From the IMG/VR virus record IMGVR_UViG_2713897161_000003: DNA of 14,535 bases; one strand, given 5' to 3'. The DNA is from a virus. Taxonomy: Duplodnaviria; Heunggongvirae; Uroviricota; Caudoviricetes. Under the pieces are notes generated by a model, which was not told the DNA's origin, made no database searches, and saw only the letters and a list, made by a program, of their open reading frames with translations. The position numbers and the translations under genes were made by a program. Below are positions 1 through 14,406 of this stretch, one piece after another. Numbering within the stretch: position 1 is the first letter of the stretch; every line of letters begins with the position of its first letter.

Positions 1-135
1 TCGCTCTGACTTTCCAGAACCATACGGACTGCCCGTTGACGGACTTCGGGGGAAAAACGAGTATTTTTAGTCATCCTGTTTACCTCTTTCTCAGGAAGTT
101 TAGTCTCCAGGATTCCCGGGGCGGTTCATAGCGTC

Positions 136-558
136 ATGGCCGAAATAGCCTGCCGAGCCCTTTCCCCCGCAGTGAACGATCCTGGAACCGCCATTGATGT
201 CATTGGCAGAGGTGTACGTATACTTTCCGCTTACGCGCAGAATAAATCTGATGAAATAGAAGTGAAATATCCTTCTGTACATGTTGCACCACTTCAGAAT
301 AACGATCTACTTGAAGACTTTTTCTCACCTGTTGCGCGCGATGGTGCCAGTATGAGGGAAATTCAGATAAGGGTACTTAAAGGACTGTCGATGCTGAGTA
401 AGGGTTGGCCTGGAATTTTTGCTGAAGCCGCACAAACCCTAGCATTTGAAACATTAGAGCATGCTACTCGTGCTGACCATATAGATTCTGACAGATATCT
501 AATAAAATCAATTTATTATAATTTATTTAGTGGCGAAGATTCTAATAAAAAACCATAG
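136..558 (+). CDS. Hypothetical protein, 140 aa; possibly the 3' part of a disrupted or frameshifted longer gene
   Basis: ATG-initiated ORF with no convincing Shine-Dalgarno. In-frame stops lie upstream at 7-9 and 37-39, while a different frame is open from the window edge to 131. Product not recognised. Confidence 0.35.
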   Translation: MAEIACRALSPAVNDPGTAIDVIGRGVRILSAYAQNKSDEIEVKYPSVHVAPLQNNDLLEDFFSPVARDGASMREIQIRVLKGLSMLSKGWPGIFAEAAQTLAFETLEHATRADHIDSDRYLIKSIYYNLFSGEDSNKKP

Positions 559-688
559 TTGCGGAGCAAGCGATACGGTTGTTGGCAAGTCAAGGGCAAA
601 GCATTCGCGTGAGAGTGGGCGTCTGCTTTGTGCCAGAAGCGGACATACGTAACTTATGATACGCATCGCCAATCATCCGTTTCAAACA

Positions 689-1570
689 TCAACGCGGAAA
701 CGTTTTAAGAATGTAATCCCGAACATAGGCGGTTCGGCTGTTATTAGCCGTCCTTTTGTTCCAGACCAGATAAAGATGATTAGTCGGAGCGAGGTCTGCA
801 GGTGTCACTGAAATCAGGCGACCACTTTTCAGGTCATTGTCACAGTGATAATCCGGCAGCACTGTCCACCCGTGGCCGTCACAGACCAAGTCGCGGATAA
901 TACGTAAATCCGGAATGGTGAATGTAGCCTGCATCTCAGGGGCTCTCTGAAACATGGAGGCCCAGAGCGCTCTAATCAGTGGCAACTCTTCGTCATAAGC
1001 AATCAGCGGTAATGAGGCAAGCGTTTCAGCACCAGGTTCTGATCCGATGATCTCTGACATGGCGGGAGCATGAACAAGGAGCATGCGTTCAGTCAGTAGA
1101 TGTGCATAGCCGTACAGACGGTCATCAGGCATAGATGTGGTAACAGCGAGATCGGCGCTCCCGTCATGCAAAAGGGAATAAATACGTTGCTTATTGCCGG
1201 TATGAAAGCGTAGGCGATACCCCTCCTTCATTAGTGGAGCCATTACTGTCCCAAGCCGGGAATGAATAAAATCTGGCGGTCCTGCCAGATTAATTGTTCC
1301 CCCGCGTACAGAGCCTGACCGGAAAGAGGACAGCTTTTCTTCCAGACCATCAATGAAGGGTGAAACTGAGCGGGCAAGCTCATCCGCAGCTTCGGTTGCC
1401 GTCACGCCTCTGGCCTGCCTGATAAACAGACGCTTACCAACCAGAGTCTCAAGAGACTGGATATGCTGTGACGCCGCGGGCTGAGTGATGCCCAGTAGTT
1501 CTGCCGCCTTTGAAAAGGAGCCAGAGCGATAGGCCTCAAGAAACGTTCGCAGATGGCTCAGATGGCTCAT
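689..1570 (-). CDS. LysR-family transcriptional regulator, 293 aa
   Basis: N-terminal helix-turn-helix typical of LysR regulators (FSKAAELLGITQPAASQHIQSLE), followed by a substrate-binding-domain-length C-terminus. Start overlaps the stop of the upstream ChaC-like gene by 4 nt (ATGA). Confidence 0.9.
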   Translation of the reverse strand: MSHLSHLRTFLEAYRSGSFSKAAELLGITQPAASQHIQSLETLVGKRLFIRQARGVTATEAADELARSVSPFIDGLEEKLSSFRSGSVRGGTINLAGPPDFIHSRLGTVMAPLMKEGYRLRFHTGNKQRIYSLLHDGSADLAVTTSMPDDRLYGYAHLLTERMLLVHAPAMSEIIGSEPGAETLASLPLIAYDEELPLIRALWASMFQRAPEMQATFTIPDLRIIRDLVCDGHGWTVLPDYHCDNDLKSGRLISVTPADLAPTNHLYLVWNKRTANNSRTAYVRDYILKTFPR

Positions 1571-2259
1571 AGTGAAGCGCCTCGCTGATGAAGTTTATCG
1601 TTACAGGGAGCCTCATGCAGAGCAAGGGCCAGTTCACTCACGTAATCATCCCGTATTCCCAACGCACCCAGAGTGGCCTGCAGTTTCCATACATAATCTG
1701 CATTCGTGCCAATGTCTCCACGGGCAGATGCGATGCTCAACGCTACGGTCGCTGTAAGATTGTCCTGTTCATAATGCGGATGCAGTCTGTCTGATACGAA
1801 AGCCAGCGCCTGAATTTCCTCACCGTTTCCTAGCGAAACGTCTGCCCAGACCGGACGGTAAAGACCGGTTATCATCTCGCGCGTCCAGACAATTTCCAGC
1901 TCATTAATAAGAGTCGATTCCGGCAGTCTGAACGCAATACCTTCGGTAATTCCACCTTCGTCGAGCGATAACATCCTGCCGGGGACATCAGGAGTCGCTC
2001 GTCCGGATATCAAACGAATGCAGAAACTGCGCTGCCATCCTTTCAGACGGGCCCGTTGCATTTCTTCAATCGCCAGCACGGGATTCCACATCAATGACCC
2101 GTAGGCAAATATCCAGACAGGAGCACCCGTCGGGCGCTCCTCCAGAGTAGAGTTCATTGATGCGCGTATTTTTTCAGCGTCCCAGAGCATATTCGCCGGG
2201 AGCAGCGCTTCATGCACCCTGACAAATGTGCCATTAAGCATATTTTCACGGGTAAGCAT
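1567..2259 (-). CDS. ChaC-like gamma-glutamylcyclotransferase family protein, 230 aa
   Basis: Contains the YGSLMWNP motif and overall resemblance to E. coli ChaC as recalled (VWIFAYGSLMWNP...GRMLSL.EGG...G.AFRLPE). Lies 11 nt downstream of the MFS stop and overlaps the LysR start. Confidence 0.85.
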   Translation of the reverse strand: MLTRENMLNGTFVRVHEALLPANMLWDAEKIRASMNSTLEERPTGAPVWIFAYGSLMWNPVLAIEEMQRARLKGWQRSFCIRLISGRATPDVPGRMLSLDEGGITEGIAFRLPESTLINELEIVWTREMITGLYRPVWADVSLGNGEEIQALAFVSDRLHPHYEQDNLTATVALSIASARGDIGTNADYVWKLQATLGALGIRDDYVSELALALHEAPCNDKLHQRGASL

Positions 2260-2270
2260 ATAACCTCCCT

Positions 2271-4067
2271 TTACTGGCCTACGATTTTAACCTGTTGAAA
2301 TTTACGACTGTGGCTGCGACGGATTTGTGCAAGCAGCAACAGCAGGCCGAGCAGAGAAACAATCGCACCGCTGATACCGGTATACACGATACCGGCGTGG
2401 CTTATAGTAATGCTGCCCAGTACTGATCCCAGCGCTATACCTGAGTTGAAGCCCGCAATATTCAGGCCGGCAGCAACACCATGCGCATGAGGAGCATGTT
2501 GCTCAGCGACACCAATCAGACGGGCCTGCAGTGCCGGCACTGCGGCAAATGTCACCATACCCAGCAGCGCAACCACAATGCCCATGCTCACCGGTGAGGA
2601 TGACAGCAGCCACATACCAAGCACGACAACAACAATGCCGCTAATGATGAGTATATTGGCACGATTAACCCCCATGCTGTCGGTAAGTTTCCCACCAAGA
2701 ATATTACCTACCGCAGCTGTAATACCGTAAACCAGCATAAACAGACTCACCGTTGCTCCGGTAACCCCTGTCACCTGCGTCAGAATAGGTGCGATAAAGG
2801 TGTAAGCCGTAAACGAGCCTGCATACGCCAGCACCGTAACCAGCGCGCCGGCCAGCAACTTACGGTTAAACAGCATGCCGATATTCTGCATTGCTGAGTC
2901 ACTATGTTCACCGGGCACGCTGCGTACGGGATCTTTCATACCGAACAACAGTCCAAGGAATCCGAACGCGCCAAAAGCGGCAATAGCGCCGAGAACTGGA
3001 CGCCATGAGACGACCCCCCNNNNNNNNNNNNNNNNNNNNNNNNNNNNNNNNNNNNNNNNNNNNNNNNNNNNNNNNNNNNNNNNNNNNNNNNNNNNNNNNN
3101 NNNNNNNNNNNNNNNNNNNNNNNNNNNNNNNNNNNNNNNNNNNNNNNNNNNNNNNNNNNNNNNNNNNNNNNNNNNNNNNNNNNNNNNNNNNNNNNNNNNN
3201 NNNNNNNNNNNNNNNNNNNNNNNNNNNNNNNNNNNNNNNNNNNNNNNNNNNNNNNNNNNNNNNNNNNNNNNNNNNNNNNNNNNNNNNNNNNNNNNNNNNN
3301 NNNNNNNNNNNNNNNNNNNNNNNNNNNNNNNNNNNNNNNNNNNNNNNNNNNNNNNNNNNNNNNNNNNNNNNNNNNNNNNNNNNNNNNNNNNNNNNNNNNN
3401 NNNNNNNNNNNNNNNNNNNNNNNNNNNNNNNNNNNNNNNNNNNNNNNNNNNNNNNNNNNNNNNNNNNNNNNNNNNNNNNNNNNNNNNNNNNNNNNNNNNN
3501 NNNNNNNNNNNNNNNNNNNNNNNNNNNNNNNNNNNNNNNNNNNNNNNNNNNNNNNNNNNNNNNNNNNNNNNNNNNNNNNNNNNNNNNNNNNNNNNNNNNN
3601 NNNNNNNNNNNNNNNNNNNNNNNNNNNNNNNNNNNNNNNNNNNNNNNNNNNNNNNNNNNNNNNNNNNNNNNNNNNNNNNNNNNCGCTCTGCCTGCTTTAC
3701 CCGGTCCAGCAAGACGAGCTGCGGTACTGGATGCCGCAGCCAGAAACAGGCCGTGTCCCAGACCAGCAATGAACCGCGCTAACAGGAGCTGAGGTAATGT
3801 GGCTGCAAACGCGGCCGCCAGACTACCGGCAGTAAACACAACGGCAGTTGTAAGCATTACATTTTTCCGGCTCCAGCTTGCTGTCAGCGCAGACAGTACG
3901 GGTGCCGCGAACGTTGCCCCCAGTGCATAGGTTGTAACCGCTGCCCCGGTCTGCTCCACACCCACACACAACCCCTGAGCCATAACGTCTGTCAGCCCAA
4001 TGGGGACAAATTCCGCGAGTCCGAGCGCAAAGGCACTGATAGTAAACACATAAATAACAAATGGCAT
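2271..4067 (-). CDS. MFS-family transporter, interrupted by an assembly gap; true length unknown
   Basis: Hydrophobic multi-helix translation on both sides of the N-run: 128 aa N-terminal part and 249 aa C-terminal part, consistent with a roughly 400-aa 12-TM MFS permease. The X-run in the ORF track is the gap artefact. Confidence 0.8.
   Translation of the reverse strand: MPFVIYVFTISAFALGLAEFVPIGLTDVMAQGLCVGVEQTGAAVTTYALGATFAAPVLSALTASWSRKNVMLTTAVVFTAGSLAAAFAATLPQLLLARFIAGLGHGLFLAAASSTAARLAGPGKAGRAXXXXXXXXXXXXXXXXXXXXXXXXXXXXXXXXXXXXXXXXXXXXXXXXXXXXXXXXXXXXXXXXXXXXXXXXXXXXXXXXXXXXXXXXXXXXXXXXXXXXXXXXXXXXXXXXXXXXXXXXXXXXXXXXXXXXXXXXXXXXXXXXXXXXXXXXXXXXXXXXXXXXXXXXXXXXXXXXXXXXXXXXXXXXXXXXXXXXXXXXXXXXXXXXXXXXXXXXXXXXXXGVVSWRPVLGAIAAFGAFGFLGLLFGMKDPVRSVPGEHSDSAMQNIGMLFNRKLLAGALVTVLAYAGSFTAYTFIAPILTQVTGVTGATVSLFMLVYGITAAVGNILGGKLTDSMGVNRANILIISGIVVVVLGMWLLSSSPVSMGIVVALLGMVTFAAVPALQARLIGVAEQHAPHAHGVAAGLNIAGFNSGIALGSVLGSITISHAGIVYTGISGAIVSLLGLLLLLAQIRRSHSRKFQQVKIVGQ
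3020..3683. other. Assembly gap, run of 664 N
   Basis: Uninterrupted N characters. Length may be an arbitrary scaffold placeholder. Confidence 0.99.
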
Positions 4068-4787
4068 GACTGGCTCCTGATTTAAGTAAGGAGTGCAGTC
4101 TGATTTAGAAAAACAGATAAATAAAATAATGTAAACTTCAGGCGGGATAAAATTATTTATATCTAAGGCAAAGATTCAATATTCCCACAGCACACAGAAG
4201 TTTTCTGTCTTCAGGGAGAGGAGCTTCGAAAGTTCAGACGAAAAATTCCTGCGGCCCCTTTAAGAGTCAGTTGGCCGGGTTTGGTCCGCTCCTCGCTCAA
4301 AGCGGACTAGAAGGTTAGCTTGCGTCGGACTTGGCGTATTTAAAGAAGTGCTGGTGGTGACTGGTTGTTGTGTTCCATTTCTACAGAACAAAATCACAGA
4401 AACTATACCCAATAGTTATATTGAATCAATGATGAGACAGCCTCATATTTATCAGAACTGGTGTACGTCCAATACAGGAGGTTGTCGTGCTGGTTCTCAA
4501 ATGTGCGCTAGCTATTGCGGCTGTAATGGCAATTTATTGTCTTGCTGTTGTTCTTATGGATCGCCTTTCTGATTGATTTTATATTGGCGAGGTGACGGGA
4601 GTTAAGTAGAATTGCTGCGGGTGCTTGAGGCTATCTGCCTCAGGCATGAACACCAAAGGCAGATAGAGAAAAGCCCCAGTTAACATTACGCGTCCTGCAA
4701 GACGCTTAACATTAATCTGAGGCTCAATCTATGAACGGCAAATCTAGGTTAGCCTCTTACGTGCCGAAAGGCAAGGAGAAGCAGGCT

Positions 4788-4943
4788 ATGAAGCAGCAAA
4801 AGGCGATGTTAATCGCCCTGATCGTCATCTGTTTAACCGTTATAGTGACGGTACTGGTAACGAGGAAAGACCTCTGCGAGGTACGAATCCGAACCGACCA
4901 GACGGAGGTCGCTGTCTTCACAGCTTACGAACTTGGGGAGTAA
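4788..4943 (+). CDS. hok: Hok/Gef-family type I toxin, 51 aa; an in-frame upstream ATG at 4731 gives a 70-codon mok-like reading frame
   Basis: Translation MKQQKAMLIALIVICLTVIVTVLVTRKDLCEVRIRTDQTEVAVFTAYELGE closely resembles HokD/HokC as recalled. Shine-Dalgarno AAGGAGAA lies 8 nt upstream of the ATG at 4788. Confidence 0.85.
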   Translation: MKQQKAMLIALIVICLTVIVTVLVTRKDLCEVRIRTDQTEVAVFTAYELGE

Positions 4944-5406
4944 GAGGACCAGCGGGGAGAAATCCCCGCAACCTCTGATGTATTATGCATCCTCAACGCA
5001 GCCACAGTTAACCTGATTGGCGGGTTTACTTCATCTGTAAATATTTTTATAAAAATAATGCCCACGCACAGCATAAAACAAAAAGTATTACAGATAAAAA
5101 AGGAACGTAATGTGCAGATTTGTTGTTTTCCATATTTACTCACCTTAATATGATTAACCCTGATAGGGTTGTTATTTCAGCGGTTTTCAAATGAGATATT
5201 ATGGTGATCTGACAAATTTGCATAACATTAAAATTTAATTTGTTTAACCGCTTTTAATAATAAGCGTTGTTTGTATCCCAGCAATCTGTTGTTTGGTTTT
5301 TATTCCATTAAGGTGGGGGCTTTACACTGGAACCAGTTTATTTATACTTTATACGTCAGCCTGAACAACTGGCATCTGCTGCACTGCGCCATCGAGAGAT
5401 TGAGAA

Positions 5407-6006
5407 ATGGCGCATATACAACTGGTCAAACAAACTTCTTCTGGTTTACTTCTCCCGGCGACGCCGGAGAGTTGCGATTTTCTGCATCAAATCAAAATAG
5501 GTGAGTGGATACACGTAGACTTTAAGCGTGTGCGTAACTACGCATTCCACAAGCGTTTTTTCAAACTCCTGCAACTGGGATTCGATTACTGGACTCCGGT
5601 CGGTGGGGCGATCACGCCTCGCGAACGAGAACTGCTGTCTGGTTTCGTTGATTACCTGTGCGAATCAGTTGGTCGGGAACACACGCCAGCCCTGAGTGAT
5701 GCCGCAGAGCAATACCTTAACACCGTTGCGACTCGTAGAACCCGGGATACGGCGTTGCTAAAGTCGTTTGAGGCTTTCCGCGAGTGGGTAACCATTCAGG
5801 CCGGATTTTACACCGAGCATATTTATCCGGACGGTAGCCGTGGGCGTCGGGCAAAATCCATCGCTTTTGCGAATATGGACGAAGTCGAGTTTCAGCAGGT
5901 TTATAAATCTGTACTGAATGTGCTGTGGAACTGGATTCTGTTCCGTAAATTCTCCTCTCAGGAGGAAGTTGAAAATGTGGCCGCACAACTACTGGAGTTT
6001 GCGTAA
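5407..6006 (+). CDS. Phage nin-region protein, 199 aa (DUF1367-like, assigned from memory)
   Basis: Long ORF in the early-right orientation immediately upstream of the ybcO-like gene. Its stop overlaps the next start (TAATG), indicating translational coupling. Confidence 0.7.
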   Translation: MAHIQLVKQTSSGLLLPATPESCDFLHQIKIGEWIHVDFKRVRNYAFHKRFFKLLQLGFDYWTPVGGAITPRERELLSGFVDYLCESVGREHTPALSDAAEQYLNTVATRRTRDTALLKSFEAFREWVTIQAGFYTEHIYPDGSRGRRAKSIAFANMDEVEFQQVYKSVLNVLWNWILFRKFSSQEEVENVAAQLLEFA

Positions 6007-6473
6007 TGGTGAATTTACGTAAAGCGGCTAAAGGCCAGATGTGCCAGATCAGAATCCCTGGCTACTGCAATCACAATCCCGAAACCTCTGTGCTGGCGCA
6101 TTACAGGCTGGCGGGGACGTGCGGAACAGCGACAAAACCACACGATATGCAGGCGGCGATAGCCTGTAGCTCATGCCACGATCTAATCGACGGGCGGGTA
6201 AAAACCAGCGATTACACCAAAGAAGAATTGCGCCTGATGCATGCTGAAGGGGTTTTCGCACACAAGAAATCTGGAGAAAGAAAGGTCATTTATGATTTAC
6301 CCAACGAATACAGGAAAAAGCGGAGAACACCTTCGCCTCACCACGCTGGAAAGTGTCTGGATTCAGGGAAAACTACGTATGTGGGGGCGCTGGTCGTATA
6401 TTGGCGGTGGCAGGTCAGGGAATATGTTCAATCAGTTGTTGGCATCCAAAAAACTGACGAAAACAGCCATTAA
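6006..6473 (+). CDS. YbcO-like phage protein (DUF1364, putative nuclease) with an atypical ~60-aa C-terminal extension
   Basis: The first ~90 aa (LRKAAKGQMCQIRIPGYCNHNPETSVLAH...ACSSCHD) match the Cys-rich prophage YbcO family as recalled, which is ~96 aa. This ORF runs to 155 aa and overlaps the Q gene in another frame. Confidence 0.65.
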   Translation: MVNLRKAAKGQMCQIRIPGYCNHNPETSVLAHYRLAGTCGTATKPHDMQAAIACSSCHDLIDGRVKTSDYTKEELRLMHAEGVFAHKKSGERKVIYDLPNEYRKKRRTPSPHHAGKCLDSGKTTYVGALVVYWRWQVREYVQSVVGIQKTDENSH

Positions 6474-6834
6474 TGAAGCCCTGCGCAGAATGAAAAAAGC
6501 GGGAATAGAGAAAGCTGAGCTGGAAGCGTTTTTGCGAGAGATGATCAACGGCAAGCAAAAGAGCTGGCTGGCGCATTGTACTGATGCAGAGGCGTTATGT
6601 ATTGATCGAGTCATAAGTGAGGTGCTGGCAGAGCATCCAGGATTGATTTGCATTCTCCGGCAACGCTATGAAGGGCGGGGGATGACTAAGCGCAAAATGG
6701 CTGAATTGCTAAATGATGCACACCCAGAGTGGTGTTTTAGCACATGCGAAAAACGGATTGCTAATTGGTTAGCTGTTGCTGAGTATGCCCTATATATTCC
6801 CATGCGTGAATCATTTGCTGAGAAAATGGCTTGA
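6292..6834 (+). CDS. Late-gene antiterminator Q (21/82-type family), 180 aa from the ATG at 6292; the ORF track offers an alternative start at 6241
   Basis: N-terminal LESVWIQGKLRMWGRWSY motif resembles the Q-antiterminator family. Positioned immediately upstream of a short terminated leader and the lysis genes. GGAGAAAGAAAGG lies upstream of the ATG at 6292. Confidence 0.75.
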   Translation: MIYPTNTGKSGEHLRLTTLESVWIQGKLRMWGRWSYIGGGRSGNMFNQLLASKKLTKTAINEALRRMKKAGIEKAELEAFLREMINGKQKSWLAHCTDAEALCIDRVISEVLAEHPGLICILRQRYEGRGMTKRKMAELLNDAHPEWCFSTCEKRIANWLAVAEYALYIPMRESFAEKMA

Positions 6835-6914
6835 TTTCTTACGTATAAACTGCTTCAATTTTGCTATGCTTCGTAAAGCTGTATCGCGAGGCGGATTGCA
6901 GACATGGACATCGT

Positions 6915-6941
6915 AAAAAAACCGCTTAATGCGGTTTTTTT
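6915..6941 (+). terminator. Intrinsic terminator, tR'-like, ~80 nt downstream of Q
   Basis: AAAAAACCGC / TTAAT loop / GCGGTTTTTT hairpin followed by a T-run. A possible extended -10 (TGcTATGCT, 6862-6870) lies upstream, giving the short-leader arrangement expected of a Q-modified late promoter. Confidence 0.6.
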
Positions 6942-7878
6942 ACGTCAGGAAAGCAGGGGAGAATGCTGCTAGTTGGGCAACTGGTCTTTCTGCTCCAAAT
7001 TATAACAGAGACCAGTTATAGTTTCGGTGCTGTGTTTTTTTTACAATATTGTGATAACACATTGCTGGCGGGAGTTTTGATATTTCTTGGCAGGGGCTGA
7101 TGATGCGTTATCCTGATGTCGTCAACTCATATAAAATGAGATGAGAGATCATTGCAGGGTGGTTTGTAATTCGCTGTTTAGCGGGACAATATGTTGTCTG
7201 ATACAAGACACCCGACGCCTCAGATTACTATAATAAAGATGAAGCATCCTTTGTATTGACCAACCACCTGTTTAGGCGGTTCTTTTTGGGCTGGTTTATT
7301 GTATGCAAAATGATTATTAAAAAGGTTGTGTTAATAACAAAATCCGAAATAATATGCCTGCATATTTTTATCTTGCTTATATTCTGCATATTGTGCATAG
7401 CAGGCTCATCCCTGCAATCAAAACTGTATGATGAGTATTTTTTGTTTTCCTTTTTTCCAGTCATCTGATGATGACCTGCTTCTTTTTAATCCGGATCGAC
7501 ATCAGTTTTTTAAGATAATTCCTGCGAGTTATATGCATAAATGCCACAAACTCCGCATTTTATGTGGTTGGGAGTTGCCGGGCGCGCAGTGAGTTTGCTA
7601 AGAAAACTCCTGCATGGTGAATCCCCCTGTGCGGTGGGGTGATACCATTAACCTTTTCTGTCGCCGACAGGTATCACGAACATTTTGTTCACCGGGAGGC
7701 ACCCGGCACCATGCACTTCAATAGATTCTCTCCACATTATGGATATTCTTTCAGAATATCCCACGCAGACTTTGTGTAAATGTTAACAAATGTGCGTTTT
7801 ATTTGATCTGATTCGCTGTTTGAGCGTCCAAAACAACGGTATATATAATCCTTTACTATATGACATATGTGAGGAAAA

Positions 7879-8307
7879 ATGGGTTTTCGTAGCGCATCAA
7901 TTCCTACGTTGATTATTAGTGGGATTATTATCGGGTGCACTGATGCTGTATCGACAAATTATCATGACCGTACATCATATTACTCCGATAAAGCAATAGA
8001 GACACAGTATGTGAGTTCATCTGAACGTACTTCTGATGTTAGTGAGGATATCCGTCTGTATGCCCATCAAATCAAGAGCGCCATCGAAAAACAGTTCGGG
8101 GATGCGAGTAAGTATTCAGGAAAAGAGTGTACACTGAGAATGCATATGGCCCCGAATGGCCTTCTACTGGAGGTTAAAAGAGAAAGTGGAGACCTCGATT
8201 TATGTCGTGAAGCGATGAATGCGATAAAGAATGCTGATATACCTGCCCCCCCTTCGCCGGAAGTATATAAAGTATTTCAAAATGGGGTGCTGGATTTTAA
8301 ACCCTGA
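7879..8307 (+). CDS. Lipoprotein with TolA C-terminal (domain III)-like domain, 142 aa
   Basis: Signal peptide with lipobox IIGC and Thr at +2. The C-terminal ~85 aa (YAHQIKSAIEKQFGDASKYSGKECTLRMHMAPNGLLLEVKRESGDLDLCREAMNAIKNADIPAPPSPEVYKVFQNGVLDFKP) closely parallel the C-terminus of E. coli TolA as recalled, including two Cys spaced 25 residues apart. Shine-Dalgarno GAGG precedes the ATG. Confidence 0.8.
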   Translation: MGFRSASIPTLIISGIIIGCTDAVSTNYHDRTSYYSDKAIETQYVSSSERTSDVSEDIRLYAHQIKSAIEKQFGDASKYSGKECTLRMHMAPNGLLLEVKRESGDLDLCREAMNAIKNADIPAPPSPEVYKVFQNGVLDFKP

Positions 8308-8457
8308 TATTTATTGTTTTGTAATAAACGGTTTCGGCTTAGGTTTGTTCTGACACAGCTACGGCACTGAGCTAAATTTAGCGGATAGTCAGCTCTGAGC
8401 CAGTGGCGGACGTAACAACTACTATTGCTGAGATTTTAATGGATTGAGGAGCAAGAA

Positions 8458-8853
8458 GTGGGATTAAAGAAAATCGTTATGTTGACTTTTTGGGTCGGTT
8501 TTGTTGCGGGATGCACACCTTTACACCCTTCAGATTGCCACAAAACTACTGCTACAGGTAGTTGCAGTTCAGGACGCTGGGATGATCAGGATGAATGGGG
8601 GGCGCAAGCGCGGGGAATCAGAGCTGCAATTAATGCCAAACTTGATGAGCCGCATAACTGGAAAGGGAAAAAATGCAGGTTGCATATGGAATTCTCTCAG
8701 GATGGCACGGCGTTAAAAATATCTACCAGTAACGGTGATAAAGCCTATTGCGAAGCGATAAAGTCCGCAGCTCATAAAGCCAAATTTCCGGCCTTCAACA
8801 ATCCGGAAGTCTACAGAGATTTTCAGAAATCTGGCTTTGACATGCGAGGTTAG
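8458..8853 (+). CDS. Diverged paralog of the TolA-domain-III-like lipoprotein, 131 aa, GTG start
   Basis: Lipobox FVAGC with Thr at +2. C-terminal KKCRLHMEFSQDGTALKISTSNGDKAYCEAIKSAAHKAKFPAFNNPEVYRDFQKSGFDMRG keeps the Cys-25-Cys spacing and the EVY..FQ motif of the upstream copy. Shine-Dalgarno GAGGAG lies 6 nt before the GTG. Confidence 0.75.
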   Translation: MGLKKIVMLTFWVGFVAGCTPLHPSDCHKTTATGSCSSGRWDDQDEWGAQARGIRAAINAKLDEPHNWKGKKCRLHMEFSQDGTALKISTSNGDKAYCEAIKSAAHKAKFPAFNNPEVYRDFQKSGFDMRG

Positions 8854-8978
8854 CTCTTCAATTACTATATCTCATTCATAGCAAACTGACAGATTTGATG
8901 ATGTTCTATATACGAAACCTGTGATGTCAAGTCTGAGCTAATACAAATAAACATAATATCAGAGAAATACATTTTATT

Positions 8979-9002
8979 AGCTCGCTACGGCGAGCTTTTT
9001 AT
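8979..9002 (+). terminator. Intrinsic terminator downstream of the lipoprotein pair
   Basis: AGCTCGC / TACG tetraloop / GCGAGCT hairpin followed immediately by TTTTTAT. Confidence 0.65.
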
Positions 9003-9104
9003 ATTGCATCGTCTCCAGCATATATATCAATTAAGGCTCTGATTGATGTGTCTGAAAGCCTACACATAATAACTATGCCATCCGTTCCGTGCGGAGGTGA
9101 GGCT

Positions 9105-9320
9105 ATGAAATCCATGGACAAAATTTCAACAGGCATTGCCTACGGCACCTCCGCAGGCAGTGCTGGCTACTGGTTTTTACAGTTGCTCGATAGAGTAACT
9201 CCGTCACAGTGGGCTGCAATCGGTGTGCTGGGTAGTCTGGTATTTGGCCTGCTGACGTACCTGACAAACCTTTATTTCAAGATTAAAGAAGATAAGCGCA
9301 AGGCTGCGAGAGGTGAATAA
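9105..9320 (+). CDS. Class II holin of the phage 21 S (pinholin) family, 71 aa, with dual-start motif
   Basis: [71 protein letters not shown] resembles S21/EssD as recalled. The Met1-Lys-Ser-Met4 arrangement fits the antiholin/holin dual start. GGAGGTGAGG precedes the ATG at 9105. Confidence 0.9.
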
Positions 9321-9817
9321 TGCCTCCATCATTACGAAAAGTCGTTGCTGCTGCTATTGGTGGCGGAGCAATTGCTATAGCATCAGTGTTAATCACTGGC
9401 CCAAGTGGTAACGATGGTCTGGAAGGTGTCAGCTACATACCATACAAAGATATTGTTGGTGTATGGACTGTATGTCACGGGCATACAGGAAAAGACATCA
9501 TGCTCGGTAAAACGTATACCAAAGCAGAATGCAAAACACTCTTGAATAAAGACCTTGCCACGGTCGCCAGACAAATTAACCCGTACATCAAAGTCGATAT
9601 ACCGGAAACAACGCGCGGCGCTCTTTACTCATTCGTTTACAACGTGGGTGCTGGCAATTTCAGAACATCGACGCTTCTTCGCAAAATAAACCAGGGCGAT
9701 ATCAAAGGCGCATGTGATCAGCTACGTCGCTGGACATATGCTGGCGGTAAGCAATGGAAAGGTCTCATGACTCGTCGTGAGATTGAGCGTGAAATCTGTT
9801 TGTGGGGTCAGCAATGA
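9320..9817 (+). CDS. SAR endolysin (lysozyme, R21/RrrD-like), 165 aa
   Basis: N-terminal Gly/Ala-rich signal-anchor-release segment ([21 protein letters not shown]) followed by a lysozyme-like domain. Start overlaps the holin stop (TAATG). Confidence 0.92.
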
Positions 9818-10278
9818 ACAGAGTAACCGCGATTATCTCCGCTCTGGTTATCTGCATCGTCGTCTGCCTGTCATGGGGTGTTAATCATTACCGTGATAAC
9901 GCCATCGCCTACAAAGAACAGCGCGACAAAAATGCCAGAGAACTGAAGCTGGCGAACGCGGCAATTACTGACATGCAGATGCGTCAGCGTGATGTTGCTG
10001 CGCTCGATGCAAAATACACGAAGGAGTTAGCTGATGCGAAAGCTGAAAATGATGTTCTGCGTGATGATGTTGCCGCTGGTCGTCGTCGGTTGCACATCAA
10101 AGCAGTCTGTCAGTCAGTGCGTGAAGCCACCACCGCCTCCGGCGTGGATAATGCAGCCTCCCCCCGACTGGCAGACACCGCTGAACGGGATTATTTCACC
10201 CTCCGGGAACGACTGGTAATGATGCAGGCCCAACTTGAAGGTGCTCAGCAATACATAACCGAGCAGTGTTTAAAGTAA
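9814..10278 (+). CDS. Rz-type i-spanin, 154 aa from the ATG at 9814; the ORF track gives a GTG alternative at 9802
   Basis: N-terminal transmembrane helix then a coiled-coil-like periplasmic domain. The ATG overlaps the endolysin stop (ATGA). Resembles RzpD as recalled. Confidence 0.88.
10034..10219 (+). CDS. Rz1-type o-spanin lipoprotein, 61 aa, embedded in the +1 frame of Rz
   Basis: Lipobox LVVVGC and a proline-rich mature region ([15 protein letters not shown]), entirely nested within Rz. Shine-Dalgarno AAGGAG lies 7 nt upstream. Confidence 0.88.
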
Positions 10279-10415
10279 AATCTTAACTACAATATGATTC
10301 ATTTTGATGATTGTTTCATAAGGAACAGTGAAGTAAGATCTAAGAGGAGTTAAATTTTATACAGTATAATCATAATATTGCAGCAAGGTGGTTATAATTG
10401 AAAGAATATTTAGAT

Positions 10416-11873
10416 ATGAATACATCTCATGTAAGAGTTGTTACTCATATGTGTGGGTTCCTGGTTTGGCTCTATAGTCTTTCAATGTTGCCACCAATGG
10501 TTGTAGCATTGTTTTATAAAGAAAAAAGCCTGTTCGTTTTCTTTATAACTTTCGTTATATTTTTTTGCATTGGTGGCGGAGCGTGGTATACAACTAAGAA
10601 ATCTGGCATTCAATTACGTACCCGTGATGGGTTTATTATAATTGTAATGTTTTGGATTTTGTTTTCTGTTATTAGTGCATTCCCTTTATGGATTGACTCA
10701 GAACTTAATTTAACGTTCATTGATGCTCTGTTTGAAGGGGTTTCTGGAATAACAACAACAGGAGCAACTGTAATTGATGATGTTAGTTCATTACCTCGGG
10801 CATATTTGTACTATCGGTCACAGTTAAATTTTATAGGTGGTTTAGGAGTTATTGTTCTGGCGGTTGCTGTATTGCCATTATTGGGTATTGGTGGTGCAAA
10901 GCTTTATCAGTCAGAAATGCCGGGGCCATTTAAGGATGACAAACTCACTCCCCGCCTGGCCGATACGTCACGGACACTGTGGATAACTTATTCTTTATTA
11001 GGTATTGCTTGTATTGTCTGTTATAGACTTGCAGGAATGCCTTTGTTTGATGCTATTTGTCACGGGATTTCCACAGTTTCGCTTGGTGGTTTCTCAACTC
11101 ATAGCGAGAGTATCGGATATTTTAATAACTATTTGGTTGAGCTGGTGGCTGGTTCTTTTTCCCTGCTATCGGCTTTCAACTTCACTCTTTGGTATATTGT
11201 TATTAGCAGGAAAACGATAAAACTTTTAATCAGAGATATTGAACTTCGTTTCTTTCTGTTAATAGCCTTAGGGGTGATCATTGTTACCTCTTTCCAGGTC
11301 TGGCATATAGGTATGTATGACTTGCATGGAAGTTTTATTCATTCGTTTTTTCTTGCCAGCTCCATGCTCACTGATAATGGTTTAGCTACGCAGGATTATG
11401 CAAGTTGGCCCACGCACACGATAGTGTTTTTGCTGTTGTCAAGTTTCTTTGGGGGATGTATAGGTTCAACTTGTGGTGGAATTAAGTCACTTCGATTTCT
11501 TATACTTTTCAAACAAAGCAAACACGAGATAAATCAGCTTTCTCATCCCAGAGCGTTGTTGAGTGTAAATGTAGGAGGGAAGATAGTTACAGATCGTGTA
11601 ATGAGGTCTGTATGGAGTTTCTTTTTTCTTTATACTCTCTTCACGGTGTTTTTTATACTGGTGTTAAATGGTATGGGATATGATTTTCTTACATCATTTG
11701 CAACAGTGGCTGCATGTATTAATAATATGGGATTAGGTTTTGGGGCTACTGCATCGTCATTCGGAGTGCTTAATGACATTGCAAAATGTTTAATGTGCAT
11801 AGCTATGATTCTTGGTCGCCTTGAAATTTATCCTGTTATTATATTGTTTTCAGGTTTTTTTTGGCGCTCCTAA
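10416..11873 (+). CDS. trkG: TrkG/TrkH-family potassium uptake protein, 485 aa from the ATG at 10416
   Basis: Polytopic membrane protein recognised as the Rac-prophage TrkG (MNTSHVRVVTHMCGFLVWLYSLSMLPPMVVALFYKEKS...). The gene is markedly AT-rich relative to its neighbours. The ORF-track start at 10398 is TTG. Confidence 0.92.
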   Translation: MNTSHVRVVTHMCGFLVWLYSLSMLPPMVVALFYKEKSLFVFFITFVIFFCIGGGAWYTTKKSGIQLRTRDGFIIIVMFWILFSVISAFPLWIDSELNLTFIDALFEGVSGITTTGATVIDDVSSLPRAYLYYRSQLNFIGGLGVIVLAVAVLPLLGIGGAKLYQSEMPGPFKDDKLTPRLADTSRTLWITYSLLGIACIVCYRLAGMPLFDAICHGISTVSLGGFSTHSESIGYFNNYLVELVAGSFSLLSAFNFTLWYIVISRKTIKLLIRDIELRFFLLIALGVIIVTSFQVWHIGMYDLHGSFIHSFFLASSMLTDNGLATQDYASWPTHTIVFLLLSSFFGGCIGSTCGGIKSLRFLILFKQSKHEINQLSHPRALLSVNVGGKIVTDRVMRSVWSFFFLYTLFTVFFILVLNGMGYDFLTSFATVAACINNMGLGFGATASSFGVLNDIAKCLMCIAMILGRLEIYPVIILFSGFFWRS

Positions 11874-12035
11874 TATATGGCTGATTTATAATTGTGAGTT
11901 TAATATTATGTTGACTCACTCATTGATCCAATACCTAACTTTACCAGCAACCCCTCCGTCCCCAGTAGCACTGGCTGCTGGGGTGCGTTTTATTCATAAA
12001 GCAAGGCTGTATGAGCGAGAAATTAAAGATAGTCT

Positions 12036-12542
12036 ATGCGTGGCTGGATGATTAAGGGCAAGCCCGCCAGTGATCGAGCCGTATTGTCTCAGGAACAGGA
12101 CGGCATTAAATCACACACCCACAGCGCCAGCGTATCCAGTACGGATTTGGGGACGAAAACCACATCGTCGTTTGATTACGGCACTAAATCCACGAATAAC
12201 ACTGGTGCGCATACCCATAGTGTTAGCGGTACGGCTGCTTCAGCCGGTGCACATACCCATTCGATGACATTTGTTTCAGGTGGTTCCAGTGGTGCTCCGG
12301 GAAGTGGAGCATCTGATTATTCTAAATACAGTGTTAACACTTCTTCTGCAGGCGCTCATACGCACTCTGTATCGGGTACTGCTGCAAGCGCAGGTGCACA
12401 CGCACATACTGTGGGTATTGGTGCTCATACGCACTCGGTTGCGATTGGCTCACATGGACACACCATCACCGTTAACGCTGCTGGTAACGCGGAAAACACC
12501 GTCAAAAACATCGCATTTAACTATATTGTGAGGCTTGCATAA
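12036..12542 (+). CDS. Side-tail-fibre C-terminal tip fragment (Stf-like), 168 aa, His-rich repeats
   Basis: Multiple stops lie in-frame just upstream, so the ORF is not fused to any fibre shaft. Seven HxH motifs (mostly GAHTHS) sit in Gly/Ser/Thr-rich sequence. Stop overlaps the tfa start (TAATG). Confidence 0.7.
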
Positions 12543-13117
12543 TGGTATTCAGAATGAGTGAACAACCACGGACCATAACAATTTATAATCTGCTGGCCGG
12601 AACTAATGAATTTATTGGTGAAGGTGATGCATATATTCCGCCTCATACAGGTCTGCCAGCAAACAGTACCGATATTGCACCGCCAGATATTCCGGCAGGC
12701 TTCGTGGCTGTTTTCAACAGTGATGAGGCATCGTGGCATCTCGTTGAAGATCATCGGGGTAAAACGGTTTATGACGTGGCTTCCGGCGACGCGTTATTTA
12801 TTTCTGAACTCGGTCCGTTACCGGAAAATGTTACCTGGTTATCGCCGGAAGGGGAGTTTCAGAAGTGGAACGGCACAGCCTGGGTGAAGGATACGGAAGC
12901 AGAAAAACTGTTCCGGATCCGGGAGGCGGAAGAAACAAAAAACAACCTGATGCAGGTAGCCAGTGAGCATATTGCGCCGCTTCAGGATGCTGCAGATCTG
13001 GAAATTGCAACGGAGGAAGAAATCTCGTTGCTGGAAGCATGGAAAAAGTATCGGGTATTGCTGAACCGTGTTGATACGTCAACTTCACAGGATATTGAAT
13101 GGCCAGCACTGCCGTAG
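12542..13117 (+). CDS. tfa: Tail fibre assembly protein, 191 aa
   Basis: Resembles TfaR/TfaQ of E. coli cryptic prophages as recalled ([73 protein letters not shown]). Translationally coupled to the fibre-tip ORF. Confidence 0.9.
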
Positions 13118-13214
13118 GGTAAAACATATAAATTCTATAATTAGATGTATCTTTCCATTTACGGCAAGGAAGGGGGCTTGGAAGACGTAAAGCATCTCAC
13201 ACCGAGATTATTTT

Positions 13215-13805
13215 TTATATGTCAGGTGTCTGAAGTTTTGCTTTGGCTCTTAAAATGGTTTGCCGCGAGGTTTTGAATTCCCGGGCAATGGCACTTATAC
13301 TTACACCTGACTTAATTCGTTCGAATACCACCTGTTTCTGTTCTTCATTTAACACAGGTGGTCGACCAAAACGTTTCCCTGCGCCGCGGGCTCTTACTAT
13401 CCCGGAATGAGTGCGTTCAAGTAAAAGGTCTCGTTCAAATTCAGCGACTGCTGAAATTACTTGCATCATCATTTTTCCTGTTGGACTGGTCAGGTCAATG
13501 CCCCCCAATGCTAAGCAATGCACTCTGATACCTGTTTCGGTCAGTTGTTCCACTGTTTTCCTGATATCCATTGCATTACAACCAAGGCGATCCAGTTTTG
13601 TCACAATCAATTGATCACCACATTTCAGGCGAGCAAGCAACCGGTTAAAACCAGGACGCTCACTGGTTGCTGCTGAGCCACTAATGTGTTCTTCGATTAT
13701 TTGCTGAGGTTTGATTTTAAAACCTGCACTTTCGATTTCCCGGCGTTGATTTTCGGTGGTCTGATCCAGCGTTGATATCCGACAGTAAGCAAAAATTTGA
13801 GACAT
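13215..13805 (-). CDS. pin: Serine-recombinase DNA invertase of the Pin/Gin/Hin family, 196 aa
   Basis: N-terminal catalytic motif [10 protein letters not shown] (active-site Ser), resolvase-type domain and C-terminal helix-turn-helix. Convergent with tfa. Confidence 0.95.
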
Positions 13806-14121
13806 AGTGAGACTCTATACGAAATTGGTGTTCATATCATAATGCATCTCAGAAAATAATTATGATTATTTTTGTGCATATTTGTATGTACACGTTCGAA
13901 AATAAACGAATGCGTATGCAACCCCGTAATTTTGGTGAGACCCAAAATCGATTTTGTGAAAAATGGCTTTAACTCGGTTTGTTTTTCGAGTTCCGGGCGG
14001 ACTCAAGGAAGAAGAATAGTGTTGCGTGTTATTTTAACCAGATTTCAAGTTGTTTGGTCGTGGAAAAATGGAGCAAAATGTTGTTAAAGTGGAAAAATGA
14101 TAAAAAAGTAAGTTTATTATA

Positions 14122-14355
14122 TTACATTTTACCATTTAAATTTTGGTTGTCTTTAAGAACTGATATCGCTGTTTGTAATAATTCTTTGTTATCCAGCCAT
14201 GATTTTTTCTTTATGTTTCCTTCAATGTAATCAAGCAATGTTCTGGTATTGATAGGTCTTCCCTGTTTTGCTACTTCCACTACAGCATCCCCTAGGATAA
14301 TTCTTACTTCAGGAAGCTGCGCAGGGAACCACTTTAGGGTGTCTTTTGATTTCAT
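14122..14355 (-). CDS. YdfK/YnaE-family prophage protein (cold-shock-associated), 77 aa from the internal Met
   Basis: MKSKDTLKWFPAQLPEVRIILGDAVVEVAKQGRPINTRTLLDYIEGNIKK.SWLDNKELLQTAISVLKDNQNLNGKM matches the 77-aa YdfK/YnaE paralogs as recalled. AAGGAA lies 7 nt upstream of this ATG. The ORF-track start at 14433 is a likely over-extension. Confidence 0.75.
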   Translation of the reverse strand: MKSKDTLKWFPAQLPEVRIILGDAVVEVAKQGRPINTRTLLDYIEGNIKKKSWLDNKELLQTAISVLKDNQNLNGKM

Positions 14356-14406
14356 GAAGATATTCCTTAAAATATTATTGATTTTCATTGCGATATTGTA
14401 TGTCTG

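Follow-up and report, generated by a model that had tools for sequence, protein, structure and literature searches.

Gene content of the window

The window, the whole 14,535-nucleotide stretch that was analysed (IMG/VR record IMGVR_UViG_2713897161_000003), covers the right-hand portion of an E. coli lambdoid prophage of the Rac family. Outside the lysis genes, which are listed separately below, it contains the following features.

5' end of the window: cargo island (C-terminus of a DUF2254 protein, then, on the minus strand, LysR, gamma-glutamylcyclotransferase and MFS transporter)
4619-4943: hok/sok
5407-6006: NinB/DUF1367 gene
Between the 5407-6006 and 6292-6834 genes: DUF1364/YbcO-like gene, frameshifted at ~6252
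6292-6834, plus strand: intact gene for a Q-like late-gene antiterminator (DUF1133; PF06576, E = 3.5e-107; PF06530 at its cut-off)
6912-6944, plus strand: stable hairpin with flanking A and T runs (-19.7 kcal/mol, z = -6.0; 0 of 200 shuffles as stable)
7582-7768: STnc100-family sRNA
7879-8307 and 8479-8853, plus strand: moron of two TolA-domain-III lipoprotein-like genes (PF06519, E = 2.4e-23 and 1.3e-14)
8979-8996, plus strand: intrinsic terminator closing the moron, a 7-bp GC-rich stem followed by a T run (-13.0 kcal/mol, z = -4.2)
9043-9070, plus strand: sigma-70-like hexamers TTGATG (9043-9048) and CATAAT (9065-9070) with a 16-nt spacer, a 9/12 consensus match
9105-10278, plus strand: lysis cassette
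10416-11873: trkG
12035-12037, plus strand: deletion junction joining ynaK codon 9 to internal stfR at a TAT microhomology, where the SE11 and K-12 alignments break
12036-12542, plus strand: C-terminal tail-fibre fragment of stfR, 168 aa (PHROG 295, profile positions 639-794 of 794)
12542-13117: tfaR
After tfaR, minus strand: pinR and ydfK

Judged by its gene order, the prophage is Rac. The Rac synteny runs intR...recET...kilR...Q-like, lysis genes, trkG, stf', tfaR, pinR, ydfK, with integration beside ttcA; the right half of this order lies in the window, and for the left half and the junction with ttcA the evidence is the closest complete genome, that of strain SW071610, which matches 4100-14406 with 3 mismatches (99.97% identity over 10.3 kb). 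Leftward in SW071610 the prophage continues through an immunity region, kilR, recET and xisR/intR to ttcA, the Rac attachment site. Three further strains, MB19, ET881 and 20AR0354, differ from the window by 5-6 mismatches. Decay of the prophage is visible at several places: in addition to the DUF1364 gene, frameshifted at ~6252, both recE and the MFS gene are frameshifted in SW071610.

The Q-like gene is also recovered as PHROG 753, 'anti-termination protein Q-like' (E = 2e-79), and its protein is identical to that of the Rac prophage of strain SE11. The hairpin at 6912-6944 begins ~80 nt past the Q-like stop codon and, by analogy, is a candidate tR'-type terminator of the late operon; together the gene and the hairpin resemble the pR'-tR' arrangement annotated in phage 21. 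No tRNA genes lie between Q and S, where phage 21 has them. That interval holds the moron instead, both genes of which match PHROG 5772 and which has a promoter-like site of 10/12 quality upstream of it (7820-7849). A literature search on TolA-domain prophage morons returned nothing relevant. The terminator that the initial annotation had placed upstream of the holin is real.

The lysis cassette

The cassette consists of four genes.

9105-9320, plus strand: class II pinholin, 71 aa (PF04971 'P21 holin S', E = 2e-35; 120.9 bits, cut-off 26)
9320-9817, plus strand: SAR endolysin, a GH24 lysozyme of 165 aa (PF00959, E = 2e-45, 154.8 bits)
9814-10278, plus strand: Rz, inner-membrane spanin subunit (PF03245, E = 4e-53; PHROG 13, E = 1e-77)
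10034-10219, plus strand: Rz1, outer-membrane lipoprotein spanin subunit (PF06085, E = 2e-19)

All four reading frames are open at these coordinates, and their Pfam families and overlaps bear out the earlier description of an intact module with canonical features. Stop and start codons overlap as TAATG between holin and endolysin (9318-9322) and as ATGA between endolysin and Rz (9814-9817). The dual start of the holin is ATG AAA TCC ATG at 9105-9116 (M-K-S-M), preceded by the Shine-Dalgarno sequence GGAGG at 9092-9096. As read from the sequence, initiation at Met1 (9105) would give a 71-aa antiholin form carrying the extra Lys2, and initiation at Met4 (9114) a 68-aa holin form; the first six codons specify the same residues as in phage 21, where S21-71 (antiholin) and S21-68 (holin) are annotated. 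The predicted RNA fold of 9066-9130, in which an sdi-like hairpin at the dual start was sought, was like that of shuffled sequences (z = -1.2). With 90% identity to S21, the pinholin is predicted to form small heptameric channels that depolarise the membrane.

The endolysin is identical over its full length at 163 of 165 residues (98%) to both R21 (PDB 3hde) and RrrD of DLP12 (PDB 4zpu). E35, D44 and T50, read from the sequence as the catalytic E-D-T triad, are all kept. The N-terminus is a Gly/Ala-rich signal-anchor-release segment, weakly hydrophobic and without a cleavage site; residues 9-72, which cover most of this segment, equal those of R21, so that A8V is the sole N-terminal change. 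As an R21-type enzyme it is predicted to be tethered to the membrane through Sec and freed on depolarisation. Rz begins with a 20-residue stretch that reads as a transmembrane helix. Rz1 is wholly embedded in the +1 frame of Rz and has the lipobox LVVVGC, with proline abundant in the mature part. The final ~75 nt of the Rz gene, together with the Rz1 C-terminus SGNDW, form a Rac-specific mosaic variant. The cassette thus shows all the sequence-level features that define the phage 21 / DLP12 lysis-cassette family, of which we take it to be a member, and its proteins would be expected to function.

Two endolysin residues, V8 and T73, are absent from both R21 and RrrD, and could be read as a sign that the cassette only looks intact and is already non-functional, having acquired subtle disabling residues or lost its late promoter or Q action, and is now DNA awaiting deletion. 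The frameshifts in DUF1364, recE and the MFS gene would suit such a state, as would the insertion of cargo between the early region and Q. However, the same proteins, including the V8/T73 endolysin, and the same Q-to-S interval occur in the Rac prophage of SE11 and in hundreds of genomes, and nothing is damaged in the catalytic residues, lipobox, dual start or overlaps. We judge loss of function very improbable indeed.

Sequence upstream of the holin

A sigma-70 promoter just ahead of the holin, allowing expression independent of Q, had been proposed in the initial annotation. The hexamers do occur at 9043-9070, but their match to consensus is no better than chance: 13 sites of 9/12 quality were found in 3.8 kb, against 8.7±3.3 in shuffled sequences. 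The -35 hexamer falls within Rac-specific DNA where the moron ends, has no homology to DLP12 or phage 21, and is identical in SE11 Rac. Because the upstream DNA is identical in this complete prophage, the promoter-like site was not gained after the prophage became defective. A crude in-silico search for a sigmaE-type motif (GAAC-N16-21-TCWNA) gave none in 8850-9104, and the six in the whole window are at the chance level (4.7 expected); a sigmaE-type promoter like that reported for DLP12 appears improbable. Homology of the cassette to DLP12 and phage 21 starts only at about 9066-9090, and since the upstream regulatory DNA of DLP12 is unrelated before ~9078, its RpoE/Q-like regulation is not transferable to the window.

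These observations bear on whether the cassette has become a domesticated module for autolysis or envelope maintenance, with low or stress-regulated expression from a Q-independent promoter such as that at 9043-9070. Its uses would be those proposed for DLP12, namely release of cell contents, peptidoglycan remodelling and modulation of outer-membrane vesicles (OMVs). Sigma-70-like hexamers and a good Shine-Dalgarno sequence upstream of the holin are consistent with this, as is the 90-98% protein identity to essD-rrrD-rzpD/rzoD of DLP12, whose domestication is published (PMC7918800). Against it, the promoter match is at the chance level, 8850-9104 contains no sigmaE-like motif, and the upstream DNA shows no homology to the regulatory region of DLP12 and is the same in a complete prophage. 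SAR endolysins, moreover, escape slowly and spontaneously into the periplasm even when holin is absent, and their unregulated expression is toxic, so a constitutive promoter directly upstream would be costly. With these points and those on age and disruption given below, domestication appears unlikely.

Q-independent expression is accordingly not supported, the hexamers being at the chance level and the Q-like antiterminator intact. The simplest reading is ordinary late-operon control, in which Q-modified polymerase would cross the terminator at 8979-8996. In this lineage ~8 kb of cargo, partly on the opposite strand, separates the early region from Q, which may impair Q-dependent expression on induction.

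Loss of the virion genes

No head, tail-shaft or packaging genes were found in the window or across the whole SW071610 prophage, as the initial annotation had stated for the sequence it described. The sole remnants of virion structure are tfaR and the stfR fragment at 12036-12542, annotated in SW071610 as 'phage tail protein, missing N-terminus'. The Rac prophage of SE11, by comparison, appears complete, with genes for terminase, portal, capsid, tail tube, tape measure and tip downstream of trkG. Alignment of 4955-12037 with SE11 shows 13 substitutions and a deletion of one base (99.8% identity over 7 kb), none of them at 7905-11223, which takes in the second TolA-like gene, the moron terminator, the promoter-like site, the whole lysis cassette and half of trkG. 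Identity to K-12 at 9834-12037 is 99.7%. The alignments point to removal of the packaging, head and tail genes by a single, recent illegitimate deletion at 12035-12037, in a lineage that is tiny and young.

Among 5,426 complete E. coli genomes, this junction was found in four at 100% identity and in one more at 91%. The four come from Ecuador, Cuba, China and New Zealand, and each shows 3-6 substitutions relative to the window in 10.3 kb (0.03-0.06%), with 0-1 substitutions within the cassette in the deletion lineage. At such divergence, ~0.3-0.7 substitutions are expected arithmetically in the 1,174-nt cassette. Nonsense or start-loss changes make up 5.8% of possible cassette substitutions, which gives ~0.02-0.04 disabling substitutions under neutrality; an intact cassette is therefore expected without any selection.

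The same figures limit what can be said for domestication. Values of dN/dS are low against phage 21 and DLP12 (S, 0.03-0.06; R, 0.07-0.15), as a module maintained by selection would show, and for the 5' part of Rz they are 0.4-1.5, with very few changes. As a test of selection at the host level, however, dN/dS was rejected: the divergence accrued in functional phages, and there are only 0-1 changes within the deletion lineage. The low S and R values would instead reflect long-term constraint on the family, exerted mainly in functional phages. Zero substitutions relative to the complete prophage leave no power to detect host-level selection, and a deletion lineage found in only 4-5 of 5,426 genomes is small and young for a domesticated element.

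The cassette across E. coli Rac loci

DNA like 9003-10300 is present in 5,328 of the 5,426 complete E. coli genomes (median, three copies in each) and in 548 phage records, phage 21 among them, which makes it one of the best-known sets of genes in E. coli prophages. Copies covering at least 80% of this interval occur in 2,659 genomes, and 560 records reach at least 99% identity; the E. coli copies carry the annotation essD / rrrD / rzpD / rzoD. The Rac marker trkG is found in ~1,540 genomes. In 691 genomes this type of cassette is contiguous with trkG, and in 686 the 21-kb lysis-to-tail region of SE11 is covered to at least 80%. In evenly spaced samples, some Rac prophages have another holin/endolysin pair at the same position, with Rz onward common from query position 813, a pattern that in sequence terms reads as mosaic replacement.

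The state of the cassette relative to the virion genes was surveyed in evenly spaced samples and in 12 inspected Rac loci other than the window, so that the proportions are rough: the cassette is intact in 8 of the 12 and interrupted or deleted in 4. The deletion seen in K-12, which fuses ydaW to Rz at codon ~7 and removes the holin and endolysin, occurs in ~400 genomes, the bulk of them laboratory derivatives of K-12. Two virion-less Rac remnants, XH993 and SCZE5, have another downstream junction (~12044) and an IS3 inside rrrD at 9623-9626; in HCP6S3_I1, an IS1B element separates the holin gene from that of the endolysin. The gene classes that incomplete prophages preferentially lose include those for lysis (PMC7744054).

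Inactivated orthologous loci, which the initial annotation had named as evidence against co-option, are thus found in K-12, XH993, SCZE5 and HCP6S3_I1, and their deletion or disruption argues against domestication. On the other side, the cassette has stayed intact in at least three virion-less Rac remnants that are rearranged in different ways: WP2-W18-CRE-03, ZH177 and B-JRPT-4119, the last a relative of XH993 and SCZE5. Such remnants are compatible with some benefit to the host, but are also expected if their deletions are young. Retention at the host level would appear as long persistence in the virion-less state with less disruption than neutral decay brings, and this pattern is not seen.

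Interpretation and proposed mechanism

The locus is very probably an ordinary late-operon lysis cassette of the Rac prophage, of the phage 21/DLP12 type, which is intact because the deletion is young and too little time has passed for decay, and not because the host has selected it. Host co-option, which the initial annotation had drawn from the presence of an intact module in a non-producing prophage, is unsupported, given the identity to SE11, the youth of the deletion and the broken orthologues; as far as the sequence goes, nothing calls for it.

If the late operon were switched on, late transcription, rendered terminator-resistant by the Q-like antiterminator, would pass the TolA-like moron with its terminator and reach S-R-Rz/Rz1. 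Pinholin, together with the antiholin form started at Met1, would build up in the inner membrane until, at a set time, heptameric pinholes of ~2 nm, predicted from identity with phage 21, would collapse the proton-motive force. The membrane-tethered SAR endolysin would then be freed into the periplasm, refold into its active form and cut the MurNAc-GlcNAc bonds of peptidoglycan, and the Rz/Rz1 spanin complex would disrupt the outer membrane. The pinholin/SAR mechanism, including the heptameric channels of S21-68 and the formation of small depolarising holes in place of large ones, has been described (PMC9636201). In the lysogen the cassette is most likely silent, though activation of the late operon would still make it lethal.

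Cassettes of this type are already known: the pinholin/SAR-endolysin/spanin system is a textbook one, hundreds of E. coli genomes in RefSeq have the same DNA under the annotation essD/rrrD/rzpD, and co-option of the lysis module of a defective prophage has already been published for DLP12 (PMC7918800). The intactness of a gene in a defective prophage is uninformative on selection unless the age of the defect is known, and here the defect is demonstrably young. It is very unlikely that the Rac cassette is transcribed from its own weak promoter below the moron terminator and serves the host as a device for regulated autolysis, vesiculation or peptidoglycan turnover, in a second and independent domestication parallel to that of DLP12. 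Were co-option true, E. coli would have a second, modest case of a domesticated lysis module; beyond correct annotation, the locus has little importance.

Comparison with known systems

The cassette of phage 21 (S21-R21-Rz21/Rz1-21; GenBank OL657228.1; PDB 3hde, 3hdf) has the same gene order, overlaps and M-K-S-M dual start as that of the window, and also shares the SAR N-terminus, E35/D44/T50 and an Rz1 nested in the +1 frame. Over 9066-10203 the DNA is 93.9% identical, and protein identity is 90% for S, 98% for R, 90% for Rz and 92% for Rz1. The two differ upstream, where phage 21 has pR', tR' and two tRNA genes and the window has the TolA-like moron and a terminator, and at the C-terminus of Rz1, which is SERG in phage 21 and SGNDW in the window. 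Unlike that of phage 21, the cassette of the window lies in a prophage without virion genes.

The DLP12 module of E. coli K-12 (essD, rrrD/ybcS, rzpD, rzoD; PDB 4zpu) belongs to the same cassette family and likewise lies in a defective lambdoid prophage, with protein identities of 94% for S (EssD), 98% for R, 90% for Rz and 90% for Rz1. It is reported to be expressed and to affect OMV production and biofilm, and its deletion alters OMV production (PMC7918800). The module has been tied to biofilm formation and cell-wall maintenance, with a Q-like factor, RpoE and Hha as its regulators (PMC7918800 and its refs 19, 27, 28). DLP12 is, however, a different prophage at another chromosomal locus, and it is old and widespread, whereas the virion-less state of the window is rare and recent.

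The closest counterparts are the Rac prophages of K-12 and SE11, which share with the window trkG, tfaR, pinR, ydfK and the Rz/Rz1 variant, as well as integration on the ttcA side, seen for the window in its closest genome. In K-12 Rac (the rzpR/rzoR-trkG region), unlike the window, the segment from ydaW to Rz codon ~7 is deleted, so that holin and endolysin are missing. SE11 Rac keeps all its virion genes, whereas the window has lost them and keeps the lysis genes.

The virion-gene deletion and the right end of the prophage

Features of the right end:
12035-12037, virion-gene deletion junction, ynaK codon 9 / internal stfR, with TAT microhomology
12885-13083, plus strand, full-length IS009 match (Rfam, 220.9 bits; gathering score 117)

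In a second virion-less Rac lineage (XH993, SCZE5 and B-JRPT-4119; loci L011, L013 and L014), the breakpoint lies at approximately 12044, only 7 nt further; beyond it comes a tail-fibre assembly segment in inverted orientation that adjoins pinR. Because the breakpoints at 12037 and ~12044 are so near each other, they could reflect a recombination hot spot or a Pin-mediated rearrangement. The IS009 match is located within the 3' end of tfaR.

Decay upstream of the Q-like gene and a candidate late terminator

Features of this region:
6006-6296, DUF1364/YbcO-like nuclease gene, frameshifted (single-base deletion at ~6252 relative to the complete Rac prophage of E. coli SE11)
6912-6944, very stable bidirectional hairpin, AAAAAAACCGC-TTAAT-GCGGTTTTTTT

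As a frameshifted reading frame, the DUF1364/YbcO-like gene extends to 6473, inside the Q-like antiterminator gene. The frameshift is common to all four genomes of the lineage that carries the virion-gene deletion junction, which shows that decay is already in progress elsewhere in the prophage. The hairpin, with a folding energy of -19.7 kcal/mol (z = -6.0), sits about 80 nt past the stop codon of the Q-like gene; it was not picked up by a simple terminator scan, and it may serve the late promoter as a tR'-like terminator.

Cargo genes and small RNAs

Features from the left end of the window to trkG:
Window 1-4100 plus 1716-7968 of L002 (the locus in the closest complete genome, E. coli SW071610), cargo island of ~8 kb in the Rac early-right region
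3020-3683, run of 664 N within the minus-strand MFS transporter gene
4619-4943, hok/sok type I toxin-antitoxin (Rfam sok, 111.7 bits)
4790-4943, hokD open reading frame
7582-7768, plus strand, STnc100 sRNA match (Rfam, 86.6 bits; gathering score 47)
10416-11873, trkG, potassium transporter gene

The cargo island, which separates DUF977 from hokD, encodes a BCCT transporter, a DUF2254 protein, a LysR regulator, a gamma-glutamylcyclotransferase and the MFS transporter. At the same site the SE11 Rac prophage carries other cargo (DUF262, a TPR protein and IS3), and the site is therefore a variable hot spot. In a sequence alignment, the matches flanking the N run are only 69 nt apart in L002, as against 664 N in the window; ~595 extra bases have therefore been masked or inserted. 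The MFS transporter gene is frameshifted or split according to the annotation of related genomes. Directly upstream of hokD, strain MB19 has an inserted block in which Qin-like ydfW, flxA-like, ydfV and relBE genes accompany a truncated ISEsa1 transposase gene.

Long known as a Rac cargo gene, trkG separates the lysis module from the packaging module in complete Rac prophages (L001, from SE11) as well. Its identity reaches 99% or more in 1,516 of the 1,555 records carrying it, a conservation far more uniform than that of the adjoining lysis genes. The STnc100 family of sRNAs is carried by prophages and was recently connected with PasD (bioRxiv 10.64898/2026.05.13.724894); its match here falls between the Q-like gene and the TolA-like genes.

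A TolA-like moron

Features of the moron:
7820-7849, promoter-like site
7879-8307 and 8479-8853, two paralogous small TolA-like genes (PF06519, PHROG 5772)
8979-8996, terminator

Placed between Q and the lysis genes, the gene pair forms a classic moron. Both proteins combine a lipobox-type N-terminus (IIGC and VAGC) with a TolA C-terminal (domain III) fold, and we speculate that they might serve as a decoy for Tol-dependent colicins or for filamentous-phage g3p. A literature search on TolA-domain prophage morons returned no relevant paper. For comparison, phage 21 carries a gene for a TonB C-terminal domain in its own late region.
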